A stretch of DNA of 64,000 nt, taken from assembly GCA_001915925.1 (NCBI GenBank), contig MNRL01000019.1:12448-76447 (forward strand), written 5' to 3'. The notes beneath the pieces were generated by a model. That model was not told the origin of the DNA and did not search any database. It was given only the letters and a program-made list of their open reading frames with translations. Both the position numbers and the translations under genes were made by a program. This document shows positions 18,937-38,047 of the stretch, in pieces. Source of the DNA: Clostridium sp. CAG:354_28_25. GTDB taxonomy: Bacteria > Bacillota > Clostridia > TANB77 > CAG-508. Each line of letters starts with the position of its first letter. Within the stretch, counting starts at the first letter, position 1.

Positions 18937-19554
18937 ATGACAGAAAACACAAATGAAAAGGAATTAAAAGAGAAACGGAGCCGCTATTCAGATGTGGCTG
19001 TAATCTTACGTCAGTTGTATGGCGTAAGAATGACAGGAATGCCGGGTTATATATTATTGCAGGATGTACTGTATAAGTATCTGGAAAATAAAAACCTGAC
19101 AATCGATGAACTCGTTGAGTGGGCGTGTAAACACTTTGTGTTTACAATCTCAGTAGACGACGCATATGATGAAATTCTTCAGGTAGTGACACAGCAGCTA
19201 CCGGAAGCCGAGAACGGCGAGGAAGATGTAATGATGCTTCTTCCAAAAGTTTTGAGCGAAGCGACTGACTTGTATGAAAAACGTATGCTTTTCGGAAAAA
19301 TAACAGAAGCAGTGCATAAGCTGAAAATTTCTCCTATGATTAAACAGGATATAATTTCTATCCTGTTTGAAATCAAAAGAGGAAAAACAATCGATCAGGC
19401 ATTGGAAAAGCTGGCAAATGAGGATGTGGCAGGAGTTACTGAAGCGGAAAGACTAAAGGAAAAAGCAAAAAGAAAAAAAGAATTGCACAATATAATTTTA
19501 GTAGCTTTTTCTTCAGAGGTAGAATTGCTGGAGTTTGCTGAAACAATTGAGTAG
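18937..19554 (+). CDS. Hypothetical protein encoded in a visibly higher-GC islet
   Basis: Codon usage richer in G/C than neighbours; inverted repeat TTCCCAATATATGGGAA at 18892-18908 upstream. Confidence 0.5.
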   Translation: MTENTNEKELKEKRSRYSDVAVILRQLYGVRMTGMPGYILLQDVLYKYLENKNLTIDELVEWACKHFVFTISVDDAYDEILQVVTQQLPEAENGEEDVMMLLPKVLSEATDLYEKRMLFGKITEAVHKLKISPMIKQDIISILFEIKRGKTIDQALEKLANEDVAGVTEAERLKEKAKRKKELHNIILVAFSSEVELLEFAETIE

Positions 19555-31564: not shown

Positions 31565-32848
31565 ATGCTAAACGAAGTATTAGAAAATTCAAAGAATGAA
31601 TTAATGCAAATAATTCAAAAAAGCGAAGCCTTGCAAAAAAGAAAAGCAGAGTTAGAAGAGGAAATGCAACAAACTAAGGCAGATATCATAAGTTTAAATC
31701 AAGAAAATCGAAGTCTTTCTGTCTATAGAAAAAGAAATCCAATAATTGAATTTTTTATGAAAACTTTTTCTAAAAAATATAAGCAAGAACTAAAGGCTTC
31801 AGCTAGTAATAGTAAAGAATTAACAAAATTAAATGAAAAAATGACAAACCTTAGGTCAGAAAAGAGAAAATTAGATTTAGATGAGCAAACATTAAATCCA
31901 GAAAGAGCAAAGGGTCAACTTGAGAAAATGGAAAATACAGATTTAGCAATACATATGTTAGTTAATGCAAAACCAGAACTAACTAAAAATCCAGAATTTA
32001 TGAAGGATTTGATTAATAGAAATATGCAATATATAGAGTATGATAATTCTAATGAACCAGAATTATATATGCAATATATAGAAAAAATGATTCAAAAATT
32101 AGAAGAAGCCAAAGAAAGAAATAATGCAAACGAATTTACAATAAATATAACTATTAATACTGCAAAAAAGATATTAGAAGAATTAAATTCACCCAAAGAA
32201 GTAGAAGAAGGAAAATATAAAATACCTAGAAGATTTTTGTTCGAAGGTTTAAGAAAATCTGGTAAAAAGGATTTAGAATTATTAGAAAAAGGCGAAATGA
32301 TAGATATATTATCAGTAGGAAGAGATTATTTACGCGAAGATGGATGCTACAAACAAGAATATGGTAAAAAGCTAGAAGAATTATATGAAGATAAAGATAG
32401 ATTTTTAGTTATACACTATATAAATGCGTCATATCACTTTAGAGCAAAAGATGAGACTATGGCAATTAGAGATAATATTTATAAAGAGGGATTACATTCT
32501 TCAATCCAAGGAATGGATTGTATTAATACTTTAGATAGAACAGCGCATGGTACTTTTGAAGAAGATAAATCTTTTATGGAGCTTATGTCACCAGACCATA
32601 AAATGATAATAATGCTACCTAAAAAAGCATTAAATAAAAATTCAGAAGAACCAATATGGGGTTCAGACTTCCCAGAGGCAGATATACAACATCCAGGATA
32701 TATTTTCCCAGAGTATATATATGGCTATATTAATCCAGATACAGAGGAAATAGAAGAGAATCCAATTCCAGTAGAAAACAGAAAAAAATATAAGTATCAA
32801 TTCTTAAATGGACAAACTAGTTGTGTAGATGATAGAGTTAAATATTAA
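31565..32848 (+). CDS. Hypothetical protein, N-terminal coiled coil plus uncharacterised C-terminal domain
   Basis: 427-aa ORF, RBS AAGGAGAA; family not recognised. Confidence 0.5.
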   Translation: MLNEVLENSKNELMQIIQKSEALQKRKAELEEEMQQTKADIISLNQENRSLSVYRKRNPIIEFFMKTFSKKYKQELKASASNSKELTKLNEKMTNLRSEKRKLDLDEQTLNPERAKGQLEKMENTDLAIHMLVNAKPELTKNPEFMKDLINRNMQYIEYDNSNEPELYMQYIEKMIQKLEEAKERNNANEFTINITINTAKKILEELNSPKEVEEGKYKIPRRFLFEGLRKSGKKDLELLEKGEMIDILSVGRDYLREDGCYKQEYGKKLEELYEDKDRFLVIHYINASYHFRAKDETMAIRDNIYKEGLHSSIQGMDCINTLDRTAHGTFEEDKSFMELMSPDHKMIIMLPKKALNKNSEEPIWGSDFPEADIQHPGYIFPEYIYGYINPDTEEIEENPIPVENRKKYKYQFLNGQTSCVDDRVKY

Positions 32849-32874
32849 AAAAAGGACTATGTTAGTCCTTTTTT
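32844..32874. terminator. Bidirectional terminator A-run/GGACTA-TGT-TAGTCC/T-run between convergent genes
   Basis: Direct reading. Confidence 0.7.
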
Positions 32875-33566
32875 AGTTTGGCTTCTAATTTTTTTATAGC
32901 TTTAGTTTCTATTCTTGAAACATATGACCTAGAAATGCCTAAATCTTTTGCGATTTCATTTTGAGTTTCTGGTTTATGACCATTAAGTCCGAATCTTCTT
33001 ATAAGTATTTCTTTTTCTCTATCTTTTAATATTTTATCTATATTTGTATAAAGTTTTTCTTTTTTTAAACCTAAATCTACTTCATCTTCTATGCTCTTAA
33101 TATCAGCCTCTAAGACTTCTTGCAATGTTACAACATTATCATCTTTATCTTTACCAATTGGATCACTTAGTTTTACTTCTGCTTGAAGTTTTTTAGAAGA
33201 ACGTAAGAACATTAATATTTCGTTATCTATGCATTTGGCAATGTATGTAGAAAGTTTTACACCTTTATCGTGTTTAAAACTATTTATCCCTTTTATAAGA
33301 CCAATAGTGCCTATAGAAATTAAATCATCTTGCTCTATGTTAGAGGTAGAATATTTTTTTGCTACATGAGCTACTAAACGCAGGTTTTTTTCTATTAAAA
33401 TATTTCTGGCTTCAGTATCACCAGCTTTAAATTTATCTAAATAATATATTTCTTCTGATGGTGAAAGAGGTTCTGGAAACAAACTAGAACTTTGAATATA
33501 TCCAACAACAAAAACGGCAGAACTTAAAAAAGAAATAAATCCAGCCAACGAAATAGTAGAGAACAT
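32862..33566 (-). CDS. sigK: Pro-sigma-K (sporulation sigma factor SigK), uninterrupted
   Basis: NLRLVAHV..SIGTIGLIKGI..DPIGKDKD..GISRSYVSRIE closely match SigK; start set at Met preceded by GGAGG (the ORF-track 5' extension lacks an RBS); short ~20-aa pro-sequence. Confidence 0.85.
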   Translation of the reverse strand: MFSTISLAGFISFLSSAVFVVGYIQSSSLFPEPLSPSEEIYYLDKFKAGDTEARNILIEKNLRLVAHVAKKYSTSNIEQDDLISIGTIGLIKGINSFKHDKGVKLSTYIAKCIDNEILMFLRSSKKLQAEVKLSDPIGKDKDDNVVTLQEVLEADIKSIEDEVDLGLKKEKLYTNIDKILKDREKEILIRRFGLNGHKPETQNEIAKDLGISRSYVSRIETKAIKKLEAKLKKD

Positions 33567-33849
33567 ACATATACCTCCATAAAAATCACTATATGAAAAG
33601 TATATGTTTAAAAACGATTTTTGTGCCTGGACCATTGAAATTTAAATATATACACATAATTACAATAATTTTATCATAAAATTTAAAAAAGTACAAATAC
33701 TAGAATTATATAAACAAATTAAAATTAATAACTTTAACAAAGCATTCATAAGATAAAACAGAAAAAACACAAAAATTGCACAAAAAAGATATTGAAAACA
33801 AATTAAGAATGTGTTAAGATACTATTAAATTAAATAAACGACAAACAAA

Positions 33850-34050
33850 AACTTCCCTGCATAGTGCGTGTAGACTGGAATTTTAGAACCAACAAATTTT
33901 ATAAGGGAGTCCGCCTTTAAATGTGGCGTGCAAGCTTACACTTCTATTTAGTAGTAAGAAGCCCACAAGCATTTAACAAGACACCCACCTACGCGAGTAG
34001 GCTCTTAAAATTTCTAAACTTCTTACGGCTAAGGCGGGGTAAGTTTTTTT
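33850..34050 (+). ncRNA. Candidate structured non-coding RNA or leader (GC-rich, ends in intrinsic terminator CTTAC-GGCTAAGGCGGGG-GTAAG + T7); second hairpin GTGGC-AAA-GCCAC at 34096-34120
   Basis: About 45-50% GC island without an ORF in a 27% GC genome; alternative pairing CCGCCTT(33911-17)/AAGGCGG(34031-37) competes with the terminator stem. Confidence 0.3.
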
Positions 34051-34147
34051 ATGTATATAACAACTATGGTAGTGCAAAGCGCGAAGAAATTGTGTAGATG
34101 TGGCAAAGCCACTTTTCTTATGTATATAAAAAATGGAAGGATTATTT

Positions 34148-34984
34148 ATGACGATAAACGAAATAGTAAAAAAAGGAATAATTAATTTAAAAGAAAAAAA
34201 TATAGAAGAACCGCTATTAAAAATGAGGATTTTGGTAGCCTCAGTTTTAAATAAACCGAAAGAATATGTTATGGCTCATTGTGAAGATGAATTAGACGAA
34301 ATTCATAAAAAAAAGATATTAGATGGAATTGAACAGTTGAGAAATTATATTCCAATACAATATATAACCAATAATCAAGAATTTATGAAATTAAACTTTT
34401 TTGTTAATCAAAATGTACTAATTCCAAGAAGCGATACAGAAATTTTAGTAGAAGAAGTTATAAATACATATAAAAATGAACATGTAAAAATATTAGATAT
34501 GTGTACAGGAAGTGGCTGTATTGCAATTTCTTTAAAAAAATATATGCAAAATTCAGAAGTTTATGGTATAGATATAAGTAAGGAAGCATTAAAAGTTGCA
34601 CAAATAAATGCACAGAGTAATAATGTTGATGTGAAATTTAAATGTTCAGATATGTTTGCAGATATACAAGATAAAGATTTTGATGTAATTGTATCAAATC
34701 CACCATACATAAAAACACAAGTTATTAACACACTAGATAAAGAGGTAAAAAATGAACCAATTATAGCGTTAGACGGTGGAGAAGATGGCTTATATTTTTA
34801 TAAAAAAATTATCAATGAAGCATTTAATTTTTTAGCTGATAATGGTATGATTTTTTTAGAGATTGGATATGACCAAAAAGAAGAGCTTACTAAATTAATA
34901 AAAGCAGATAAAAGATATGAACTTGTAAAAACTAAAAAAGATTTAGGAGATAATGATAGAATAGTAGTTGTAAAGAAGGTGTAA
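34148..34984 (+). CDS. prmC: Release factor glutamine methyltransferase PrmC (HemK)
   Basis: NPPY motif (VSNPPYI), SAM-binding DMCTGSGCIA; start at the Met after GGAAGG RBS. Confidence 0.85.
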   Translation: MTINEIVKKGIINLKEKNIEEPLLKMRILVASVLNKPKEYVMAHCEDELDEIHKKKILDGIEQLRNYIPIQYITNNQEFMKLNFFVNQNVLIPRSDTEILVEEVINTYKNEHVKILDMCTGSGCIAISLKKYMQNSEVYGIDISKEALKVAQINAQSNNVDVKFKCSDMFADIQDKDFDVIVSNPPYIKTQVINTLDKEVKNEPIIALDGGEDGLYFYKKIINEAFNFLADNGMIFLEIGYDQKEELTKLIKADKRYELVKTKKDLGDNDRIVVVKKV

Positions 34985-34986
34985 AA

Positions 34987-35856
34987 ATGTCTTTCTCATC
35001 TGAAATAAAAGAAGAATTGAGTAAACTGAATAATTTAAAGGATAAGCAAGCTGTTTATTATGAATTAGTTGGTTATTTAATAACTAAAAATACAAAAGTA
35101 GAAAAAAAGGTAAAGTTTTCTACAGAAAACGAATTTAATATTAATAGATTTAATAAACTCCTAAATAATATGGGGATAAAATATAAAATAGAAATGCAAG
35201 GAAATTTCTATGTAATTACATTTAGTAAACCAGAAAATTTAATTAATTGTTCTTTTAAGTCAAATTATGTAGCTTTTAATAAAACAGATGAAATGGAAGA
35301 CAAAGATATAAGAGCTTTACTTAGGGGAGCCTTTATGGGTTCTGGTTTGGTAAGTGAGCCAAGTAGTACATATCATTTAGAAATTAATTTTAGTAATTTA
35401 GAGAATCTTTTAATTATAAGAGATTTTATGAAGAAATATAATATAACAGCAAAAACACTTAATAGAAATGGGAGTATTGCACTGTATATAAAAGAGGGGG
35501 AAGATATATCCAATTTTTTAGCTTGTATTGGTGCAAGTGGTGCAATGCTTAAATTTGAAGAGATAAGAGTAATAAAAGAAGCTAGAAATAATGTAAACAG
35601 AATGGTAAATTGTGAAGTGGCTAATTTAAATAAGACAGTTAATGCGGCTACTAAACAGATAGAAGCAATCAAGAAATTAAAAGCTAGTAAAAAATTTACA
35701 AATTTATCTGATGAATTAAAGGAGATTGCAGAACTCAGGTTAAAAAATCCAGATGCTAGCTTAATAGAATTAGGGAATATGCTAAAAATGCCAGTAGGAA
35801 AATCTGGAGTAAATTATAGATTGAACAAATTAATAAAAATAGCAAAGGAAATATAA
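34987..35856 (+). CDS. whiA: Sporulation/cell-division regulator WhiA
   Basis: LAGLIDADG-like N-domain plus C-terminal HTH; 289 aa. Confidence 0.8.
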   Translation: MSFSSEIKEELSKLNNLKDKQAVYYELVGYLITKNTKVEKKVKFSTENEFNINRFNKLLNNMGIKYKIEMQGNFYVITFSKPENLINCSFKSNYVAFNKTDEMEDKDIRALLRGAFMGSGLVSEPSSTYHLEINFSNLENLLIIRDFMKKYNITAKTLNRNGSIALYIKEGEDISNFLACIGASGAMLKFEEIRVIKEARNNVNRMVNCEVANLNKTVNAATKQIEAIKKLKASKKFTNLSDELKEIAELRLKNPDASLIELGNMLKMPVGKSGVNYRLNKLIKIAKEI

Positions 35857-35857
35857 G

Positions 35858-36976
35858 ATGGAAAATATAGGTATATATGTACATATACCTTTTTGTATGC
35901 GCAAATGTTATTATTGTGATTTTTGCTCATATCCAGGGAAATTGGAAAAACAAGAAGATTATGTACAAGCACTAAAAGAAGAAATAAAAGAAAGAAGCAA
36001 AAGAGTAAAAAATTATGTAGATACAATATATATCGGTGGTGGAACACCATCAATTATAGATGCGTCATATATAGCAGAAATTTTAAATTGTATAAGGGAT
36101 AATTATAAGGTAAAAAAGAATGCAGAAATAACAATCGAGGTAAACCCAGGTACTGTAACAGAAAACAAGTTACTATTATATAGGGAAGCAGGAATAAATA
36201 GATTAAGTATAGGATTACAATCTACTAAAGATAAGTTATTAGAAGAAATAGGAAGAATACATAAATATGAAGATTTTTTAAATACATATAAACTAGCCAA
36301 AGAAATCGGATTTAAAAATATTAATGTGGATTTAATGATTGGACTTCCTGAGCAAACTTTGCAAGATGTTGAAGATAGCCTTATAGACATTATTACTTTA
36401 AATCCAAAACATATTTCTGTATATTCATTAATTTTAGAAGAAAATACGAAATTAGAGGTTTTAGTTAATTTGGGAAAAATTGATTTACCAACTGATGAAG
36501 TAGAAAGAGAAATGTATTGGAAAGTTAAAGATGTTTTGGAAGCTAATGGTTATGAACATTATGAAATCTCTAATTTTGCCAAAAAAGGATATAAATCTAA
36601 ACATAATTATAATTGCTGGAAACAACATAATTACCTTGGTTTCGGTGTAGCAGCACATTCTTATTATAATAATATAAGATATTCTAATACAAATAGTTTA
36701 GAAGAATATTTGCAAAATCCAGAGAACAAAAAGATAGAAGAAACACAAGAAATAGAAGATGCTAAAAAAGAATATATGATGTTAGGCTTAAGAACTATAG
36801 AAGGTGTGAGTATATCAGAATTTAAACAAAAATATGTAGACAACCCATTGTATCTATTTAAAAATGAGCTTAATAAACTTACAGAAGAAGGCTTAGTAGA
36901 GATTGATTTAGATAATATAAAACTTACAAATAAAGGATTAGACTTAGCAAATTTAGTTTGGGAAGAATTCGTATAA
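35858..36976 (+). CDS. hemW: Radical SAM heme chaperone HemW (HemN-like)
   Basis: HIPFCMRKCYYCDF radical-SAM motif at N-terminus. Confidence 0.85.
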   Translation: MENIGIYVHIPFCMRKCYYCDFCSYPGKLEKQEDYVQALKEEIKERSKRVKNYVDTIYIGGGTPSIIDASYIAEILNCIRDNYKVKKNAEITIEVNPGTVTENKLLLYREAGINRLSIGLQSTKDKLLEEIGRIHKYEDFLNTYKLAKEIGFKNINVDLMIGLPEQTLQDVEDSLIDIITLNPKHISVYSLILEENTKLEVLVNLGKIDLPTDEVEREMYWKVKDVLEANGYEHYEISNFAKKGYKSKHNYNCWKQHNYLGFGVAAHSYYNNIRYSNTNSLEEYLQNPENKKIEETQEIEDAKKEYMMLGLRTIEGVSISEFKQKYVDNPLYLFKNELNKLTEEGLVEIDLDNIKLTNKGLDLANLVWEEFV

Positions 36977-37114: not shown

Positions 37115-38047
37115 ATGAAGAGGTATGAATTTTACTACCAATCAGCAGACAAAAAAACAAATATCCATGCTGTAAGGTGGATGCCTGAGGGGAAGCCTGT
37201 GGGAATTATACAAATTGCCCATGGTGTTACAGAGTACATCTTGCGATATGAAGATTTTGCAAGATATTTAACAGACAAAGGATTCATTGTAACAGGTAAT
37301 GACCATTTAGGTCATGGAAAGTCCATTGCTGATGGGGCTAAACCGATGTATTTTGGACCAAAAGGATCATGGAAGTGGGTCGTTGAGGATATCAAGATGC
37401 TTAAAAACATTACTGTGGAAAGGTATCCGGACTTACCATATGTTATGCTAGGTTTCTCATTGGGTTCATTTGTAGTAAGAACCTATCTGATTAATCATCC
37501 AGGAGATTTGGATGTTGCTATACTAATGGGAACAGGTCAGATGCCTCCAGTGGCAATCAAGATTGCAAAACTTGTAGCAAATATGGAGGCAAAAAAGGCT
37601 GGAGAAGATAACTCAACTCCGACCATCCATAATTTGACCTTTGGAACATACAACAAAATCTTTGCTCCGAACAGAACGGAGTATGATTGGTTGTGTAGCA
37701 ATGAAGAAGCCTTGGATGAGTACATAGCAGATCCTCAAAGAGGAGGAGATTTCTCTGCAGGCCTTTTTAGAGAATTACTTGACGGTATGCTTTATTCCTC
37801 ACATGAGAAAAATGTGTGGAATATGGATAAAAGTTTGCCTATATTACTTATTTCCGGTGAAATGGACCCTGTAGGGGACTGCGGAAAAGGTGTACAGGCG
37901 ACAGAAAAGGTGATGCGCAAAGCCGGAGTCAAGGATATTGAAGTGAAGATGTATCCTGGATTAAGACACGACATTTTGCATGAGGCGATAAAAGAGCAGG
38001 TGTATGCCGATGTGTACAACTGGGTAACCAAGAAACTGAACAAATAA
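37115..38047 (+). CDS. Alpha/beta hydrolase (lysophospholipase/monoacylglycerol lipase-like), higher-GC islet
   Basis: GFSLGS nucleophile elbow, HG oxyanion motif; GC-rich codons; own GC-rich terminator. Confidence 0.7.
   Translation: MKRYEFYYQSADKKTNIHAVRWMPEGKPVGIIQIAHGVTEYILRYEDFARYLTDKGFIVTGNDHLGHGKSIADGAKPMYFGPKGSWKWVVEDIKMLKNITVERYPDLPYVMLGFSLGSFVVRTYLINHPGDLDVAILMGTGQMPPVAIKIAKLVANMEAKKAGEDNSTPTIHNLTFGTYNKIFAPNRTEYDWLCSNEEALDEYIADPQRGGDFSAGLFRELLDGMLYSSHEKNVWNMDKSLPILLISGEMDPVGDCGKGVQATEKVMRKAGVKDIEVKMYPGLRHDILHEAIKEQVYADVYNWVTKKLNK

Follow-up and report, generated by a model that had tools for sequence, protein, structure and literature searches.

The structured interval between sigK and prmC in a gut Clostridium is almost certainly a 6S RNA gene

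The window analysed here, a 64-kb stretch of DNA from Clostridium sp. CAG:354_28_25, contains a structured interval flanked by the divergently oriented sigK gene on one side and by a prmC–whiA–hemW gene row on the other (Table 1). Although the sigK reading frame delimited mechanically on the minus strand (32862–33635) amounts to 257 aa, its likely start is the ATG at 33566, which is preceded by GGAGG; the corresponding 234-aa form fits the SigK profile (positions 8–230 of 235) and is intact, without an intervening element. The neighbouring 427-aa ORF (31565–32848, plus strand), which has no Pfam or NCBIfam match and appears by eye to be rich in lysine and glutamate, is found in the nearest relatives only, with 55–87% identity. 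At the other end of the locus, an alpha/beta hydrolase gene (PF12146; 37115–38047, plus strand) lies between hemW and hrcA–grpE–dnaK; it contains the stretch of highest GC content in the window (0.46 over 194 nt at 37836), and a horizontal origin is possible. A second GC-rich patch, at 19026–19338, lies inside a 205-aa ORF without family match.

Table 1. Coordinates of the genes, RNA segments and signals at the locus
Feature	Position	Strand	Evidence or remarks
sigK, divergent neighbour, outside the 6S element	32862–33566	−	NF004471, 303 bits (cut-off 252)
6S promoter, sigma-A-type	33792–33820	+	−35 TTGAAA (33792–97), 17-nt spacer, extended −10 TGT-TAAGAT
Predicted 5' leader	33827–33850	+	Start placed at about 33827, 7 nt past the −10
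6S RNA (ssrS)	33851–34044	+	RF00013 match, minimum-energy fold, covariation
Closing stem, 5' strand	33855–33874	+	Pairs with 34021–34039, 17 bp; helices 1 and 2 paired in 100% and 91.5%
Helix P2 ('downstream' helix), 5' strand	33877–33886	+	Pairs with 34005–34014; helix 3: 99.1% paired, 3 compensatory pairs
Central bubble, 5' side	33887–33904	+	AACCAACAAAUUUUAUAA; holds the predicted pRNA start
Apical (terminal) arm	33905–33986	+	Helices 4–7: 90–99.6% paired, 13 compensatory pairs
Central bubble, 3' side	33987–34004	+	Small hairpin CCUAC-GCGA-GUAGG (33988–34001)
Closing stem, 3' strand	34021–34044	+	Holds AAGGCGG and both arms of the terminator proposed earlier
T7 run	34044–34050	+	Directly 3' of the closing stem; probable termination site or 6S 3' end
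Variable spacer	34051–34147	+	Small hairpin at about 34073–34089; hairpin B (34100–34112) and TTTTCTT; second repeat copy
prmC ribosome-binding site	34135–34140	+	GGAAGG, in the spacer
prmC (release-factor glutamine methyltransferase)	34148–34984	+	TIGR03534, 287 bits (cut-off 199)
whiA	34987–35856	+	prmC–whiA–hemW row
hemW	35858–36976	+	prmC–whiA–hemW row

The interval between sigK and prmC differs from its surroundings in composition. Its GC content is 42.3% over 33851–34044, whereas the window as a whole has 28.0% and the intergenic segment next to it (33567–33850) 19.4%; just two other places in the 64 kb reach as high a level. The GC excess described in a previous sequence-only reading of this DNA is therefore real, its figure of 45–50% being a slight overestimate. 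The same reading had found no ORF there. Two mechanical ORFs, of 58 aa (33921–34097) and 44 aa, do overlap the region, but neither is conserved in related genomes, where the longest ORF at the equivalent place measures 0–58 aa and mostly less than 20 aa, so that the region is still rightly called non-coding; a coding role for the 58-aa ORF was rejected on the grounds that the relatives do not retain it.

An Rfam scan, which the sequence-only reading had itself proposed as a check, settled what the element is. The 6S/SsrS family (RF00013) matches positions 33851–34044 of the plus strand with a score of 102.7 bits (gathering score 46.4; E = 1.5e-19), and the match spans model positions 1–187 out of 187, i.e. 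it is untruncated and corresponds to an RNA of 194 nt. It is the sole match above the gathering threshold across the window. When the segment 33500–34250 was scanned with a permissive E-value, the only other matches were at chance level, namely mir-280 (23 bits) and c-di-GMP-I-UAU (20 bits), the latter being the best-scoring cis-regulatory family in that segment (gathering score 65.9; E = 0.11). 6S RNA is a long-known and nearly universal bacterial small RNA, which binds the housekeeping RNA polymerase and holds it back. Members of the family are rods of about 160–200 nt made up of a closing stem, a large central bubble and an apical stem, and both the minimum-energy and the consensus folds give this architecture for the 194 nt of the element. 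The region between sigK and prmC is thus almost certainly the ssrS gene coding for 6S RNA, and the stretch is an ordinary, clearly recognisable member of an RNA family that is already known. An sRNA had been one of the options entertained for the region, and this option was right in kind.

We then turn to the relatives of the window. A search with PrmC yielded 80 loci from genomes of uncultured gut Clostridia, the PrmC identity ranging from 47 to 95%. Among the first 20 loci scanned with Rfam, 11 contain a full-length 6S RNA upstream of prmC (74–104 bits), and a twelfth copy, cut at a contig end, scores 55 bits. A covariance model built from 12 copies and run on all 80 loci detected 6S in 36 of them, upstream of prmC and on the same strand in 35 cases out of 36; no match was obtained within 3 kb upstream of prmC in the other 44 loci. 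The sole 6S copy carried by the strand opposite to prmC (L012:1–161, minus strand) lies about 2.8 kb upstream of it, adjoins sigK and is truncated where the contig ends. The order prmC–whiA–hemW is kept in all 80 loci, and sigK adjoins 6S in the closer relatives only. In four loci (L039, L025, L054 and L064), 6S lies about 2 kb from prmC, with unrelated genes in between. In L039 (986–2896), the inserted gene codes for a 636-aa acidic protein whose repeat tail is very long and rich in Asp/Glu; in L025 (1427–2878), the intervening gene codes for a 483-aa protein whose N-terminus, as read from the sequence, is hydrophobic and prepilin-like.

These loci bear on the proposal that the element is the relic leader of a lost prfA gene, which would once have stood between it and prmC. 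The adjacency of prfA and prmC is common in other bacteria, and the window does lack a release-factor gene, as the sequence-only reading had stated: the motif GGQ[HN][VI]N is found nowhere in the 64 kb. However, prfA is not to be expected at this place, since a search for the GGQ motif within 3 kb of prmC revealed no release-factor gene in any of the 80 related genomes. Genes that do intervene between 6S and prmC are unrelated insertions; in particular, the L039 and L025 ORFs, considered as candidates for a prfA located in the 2-kb gaps, are not release factors. Furthermore, strong purifying and compensatory selection acts on the element (see below), which is therefore not decaying. A relic leader is therefore scarcely credible: prfA is not linked to prmC in this clade, and nothing has been lost at the locus.

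The minimum-energy fold of the 6S element is a rod with a central bubble (−52.7 kcal/mol, z = −2.3; z = −2.95 with the 5' leader added). The consensus fold derived from 33 distinct homologues comprises 57 pairs, for which 96.5% of the 1787 pair cells contain standard pairs and 22 of which are compensatory, i.e. changed on both sides. The alignment used was fitted to the 6S model, which biases these figures somewhat favourably, but the margin over the controls is still very large: sliding the 3' partners by 1–3 columns gave 38–45% pairing and 3–10 compensatory pairs, and none of 500 column shuffles reached the observed covariation score. The fold can be described as follows: (i) the closing stem, for which the more distant loci provide most of the support because it is nearly invariant in the nearest relatives, is lengthened in the lineage of the window by the pairing of ACUU (33851–54) with AAGU (34041–44), with 56.5% of the cells paired and some covariation; (ii) the apical arm consists of helices 33905–11/33980–86, 33917–24/33969–76, 33928–30/33964–66 and 33935–42/33950–58; (iii) the small 3'-bubble hairpin (−6.7 kcal/mol, present in 97% of the ensemble) corresponds to helices 8 and 9, with 100% pairing and, in 8 sequences, a pair that covaries from GC to AU. 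A candidate helix that would collapse the central bubble in the manner of B. subtilis 6S-1 (33894–33901/34006–34013) is possible in the window sequence; it is paired in 72.5% in the relatives, with zero covariation. Note that two terminator-like calls on the minus strand, at 33982–34002, are the 3'-bubble hairpin read in reverse and not real terminators.

The same segment had been interpreted as a riboswitch or attenuator leader of prmC, in which a terminator (34022–34050) would alternate with an antiterminator formed by 33911–17 and 34031–37. Part of this description stands: CCGCCTT (33911–17) and AAGGCGG (34031–37) are exact complements, each of them unique in the window, the T7 run exists and is part of a conserved U-tract, and prmC follows the element on the same strand. 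More generally, a GC-rich structured RNA that precedes a gene and ends in a run of T resembles such leaders. The proposed helices, however, fare poorly. The supposedly canonical terminator stem, in the coordinates of which one G had been counted twice, pairs CTTAC (34022–26) with GTAAG (34039–43); with 5 bp and a 12-nt loop, it folds weakly (−4.7 kcal/mol, z = −0.35; 66 of 200 shuffles fold as well), and the terminator scan made no call at 34022–34043. When both helices were tested on a 37-sequence alignment, the terminator was paired in 55% of the cells, compared with 35–55% for the slid controls, and the antiterminator in 72.7%, compared with 70.8% for shuffled columns, without covariation, so that its pairing reflects base composition only. 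Hence, while the region is conserved and its 6S fold covaries, the homologues lend no support to the two alternative stems. Their segments have another place in the 6S structure, CCGCCTT spanning an internal loop of the apical arm, AAGGCGG and GTAAG belonging to the closing stem. In addition, the sequence is that of a full-length 6S RNA, no cis-regulatory family comes near its threshold, and the element is independent of prmC in its position: the gene lies about 2 kb away in four loci and on the other strand in L012, 6S has no match within 3 kb upstream of prmC in 44 of the 80 loci, and about half of the adjacent 6S–prmC pairs have a separate promoter between the two. With neither helix exceeding its controls, we rejected the riboswitch or attenuator identity, which is very improbable. 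The structure being that of the trans-acting 6S RNA, the region is neither a riboswitch nor the relic of a lost gene.

The 6S gene would be transcribed on its own from a sigma-A extended −10 promoter (−10 hexamer at 33815–20), which is the sole TG-bearing promoter-like site detected by the promoter scan on the plus strand between 33700 and 34148. The pattern TTGNAA-17/18-TGn-TAnnAT is present upstream of 33 out of 35 homologous 6S genes, with the TG in all 33. The distance between the −10 and the first model position is 30 nt in the window and varies from 16 to 53 nt among the homologues, pointing to a 5' leader of varying length. In the window, the primary transcript is predicted to carry a leader of about 23 nt, which is probably trimmed; in B. 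subtilis, the 11-nt leader of 6S-1 is removed by RNase J1 (PMC10578484). Folding indicates that the A-run at 33846–50 in the leader is able to pair with the 3' U-tract, thereby extending the closing helix.

At the other end, the transcript would terminate at the T7 run by means of the closing helix and the U-tract. At least 5 consecutive T follow the GGGG of the closing stem within 16 nt in 31 of the 35 homologues, suggesting that the long-range closing helix itself acts as the terminator stem. Such a combination of a long-range helix and a U-tract differs from a textbook intrinsic terminator, and 3'-end formation by the closing helix is uncertain. In many of the more distant loci (L021, L030, L011, L053, L046, L042, L027 and L057), a second hairpin, of the canonical terminator type, is located 10–100 nt past the 6S U-tract, which suggests that the 6S end often terminates leakily and has a backup.

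The best conserved part of the RNA is TTTTAGAACC (33881–90), the longest run of positions with at least 95% conservation in 31 distinct homologues. Just beyond, C 33893 is the predicted start of product-RNA (pRNA) templating, with 5'-GUUGGUUCUAAAAUU as the product. In a sequence-level test, this C was found to have an A next to it, and the predicted product (GUUGGUUC...) carries GG at positions 4/5. The assignment relies on the analogy with C40, the pRNA start of B. subtilis 6S-1 (PMC8876501), and on the hallmarks of pRNAs, namely an A adjoining the start and GG at pRNA positions 4/5 or 5/6 (PMC8414754). By analogy with E. coli and B. subtilis, the 6S RNA would mimic an open promoter and sequester the RNA polymerase bearing the housekeeping sigma factor as growth slows; upon a nutrient upshift, the polymerase would copy a short pRNA off the 5' side of the bubble, starting at C 33893, and pRNA synthesis would refold the 6S RNA and free the enzyme. 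Polymerase escape through the transcription of a short pRNA from the 5' bubble side (PMC8414754) and the refolding of 6S RNAs when the polymerase copies the pRNA (PMC8876501) are both documented. This refolding uses segments other than those of the switch pairing discussed above, the candidate for it in the window being the bubble-collapse helix 33894–33901/34006–34013.

The element has much in common with the Firmicute-type 6S-1 RNA (bsrA) of B. subtilis, which belongs to the same Rfam family and is about 190 nt long. Both are rods with a closing stem, a P2 helix, a central bubble and an apical arm, both have a preformed small 3'-bubble hairpin, and they share three features that are predictions in our case, namely a pRNA start at a C near position 40–43 followed by an A, a promoter of the sigma-A type and a leader of short length at the 5' end. 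The 5'-bubble template segment of B. subtilis 6S-1 is AGUUUUGACCGAAC, which its counterpart in the window, UUUUAGAACCAAC, resembles. The two differ in that the leader is predicted to be longer here (about 23 nt versus 11 nt), the 64-kb window contains a single 6S copy and the gene neighbourhood is another one. 6S RNAs of the B. subtilis type characteristically carry a small 3'-bubble hairpin in the free state (PMC8876501). In contrast, the 9-bp 3'-bubble hairpin of E. coli 6S RNA forms only after pRNA synthesis, whereas the hairpin predicted here is already present in the free RNA.

The spacer that separates 6S from prmC is much less constant. The second hairpin reported there, GTGGC-AAA-GCCAC (hairpin B), is real but occupies 34100–34112 and not 34096–34120; with its TTTTCTT tail, which extends to 34119, it was called terminator-like by the terminator scan (−6.8 kcal/mol, z = −1.8). 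Hairpin B is present in the window and in L007, L002, L003 and L004, and absent in L001, L005 and L006. In L006, the whole hairpin-bearing segment is missing, leaving 21 nt between 6S and the prmC start codon, and the seven closest genomes differ from one another by insertions and deletions in the spacer. The absence of the whole segment in L006 and of the second hairpin in L001 and L005 indicates a spacer prone to insertions and deletions, which perhaps arise via slippage between repeats. A 17-nt direct repeat (34044–60 and 34113–29, TTTTTTTATGTATATAA and TTTTCTTATGTATATAA) brackets a 52-nt segment that contains two small hairpins; it includes TTATGTATATA, which recurs after both hairpins (at 34049 and 34118), as the sequence-only reading had correctly pointed out. 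We rejected the 17-nt repeat as a functional motif: allowing up to 2 mismatches, 2 matches were found for 1.24 expected, i.e. no excess over chance, and the nearest relatives either lack the second copy or carry a degenerate version of it. On the strength of these sequence comparisons, the spacer is fast-evolving DNA, in which hairpin B and the repeat are lineage-specific and lie outside any conserved element or regulatory switch.

If the locus contains no switch, it may nevertheless connect 6S and prmC in another way, through transcription of prmC across the 6S gene, and in this limited sense the idea of a leader for prmC may retain some value. The 6S gene of this lineage would then double as the 5' part of a prmC–whiA–hemW transcript produced by read-through, which we hold to be a genuine possibility, though one falling somewhat short of an even chance. 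Such read-through is compatible with the 6S identity, provided that neither the T7 run nor hairpin B stops every transcript and that 6S RNA is cut from the co-transcript. Several observations are in its favour. The promoter scan recognised no sigma-A-like promoter on the plus strand between 33821 and 34148, the same holds for the 6S–prmC interval of close relatives devoid of hairpin B, and in the clade of the window neither the spacer nor the last 40 nt of 6S contains a recognisable prmC promoter. In L006, L074, L067 and L059, only 21–32 nt separate the end of 6S from the prmC start codon, which leaves no space for a promoter. The absence of a recognisable promoter in the window and its close relatives, together with these short spacers, suggests that read-through into prmC–whiA–hemW may occur. 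The co-orientation of 6S and prmC in 35 of the 36 loci bearing 6S goes in the same direction, and there is a precedent in E. coli, where ssrS is co-transcribed with ygfA (PMC2848244).

Other observations weigh against read-through. Two successive terminator-like signals intervene in the window, the closing stem with its T7 run and hairpin B with TTTTCTT. About half of the more distant loci possess a good promoter of their own in the spacer (TTGnnn-17-TGnTAAAAT), so that a transcriptional linkage is not family-wide; a prmC promoter with the −10 TAAAAT, or with TAATAT, TATAAT or TAAGAT, is found in L020, L024, L030, L032, L035, L053, L057 and L068. A simple promoter scan may also overlook weak promoters or promoters that do not depend on sigma-A, and GTGGCA-17-TATATA at 34100–34128 matches 8 of the 12 promoter positions by eye. 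As for TATGTATATAA, it was rejected as a prmC promoter, its TG being in the wrong register for an extended −10, while any start site that it produced would coincide with the ribosome-binding site.

The comparison with E. coli ssrS–ygfA can be carried further. In both cases, an RNA of the same family, and presumably of the same mechanism, is directly followed by a protein gene on the same strand, and the short or promoter-less spacers in the clade of the window suggest, at the level of sequence, the same arrangement. The downstream gene differs, being prmC (followed by whiA and hemW) here and the gene for 5-formyl-THF cyclo-ligase in E. coli, and co-transcription is something that we only infer in the present case. 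With these reservations, we tentatively propose, as a view with a little over one chance in three of being right, that 6S constitutes the promoter-proximal part of a 6S–prmC–whiA–hemW transcription unit in these gut Clostridia.

The identity of the element by itself has little significance beyond annotation: the correct label for the region is ssrS (6S RNA) and not an unknown regulatory element. Two small points may still appeal to those who study 6S RNA, namely the closing helix as a putative terminator stem and the linkage with prmC. A literature search found no description of a 6S–prmC linkage, and its recurrence within one clade of Clostridia, where some spacers cannot accommodate a promoter, makes it a possible second instance of a 6S RNA co-transcribed with a downstream protein gene. 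If so, the locus would be a Firmicute counterpart of the unexplained ssrS–ygfA coupling of E. coli, and the synthesis of the release-factor methyltransferase and of the WhiA regulator would be coupled to 6S transcription and to imperfect termination at the end of the 6S gene.
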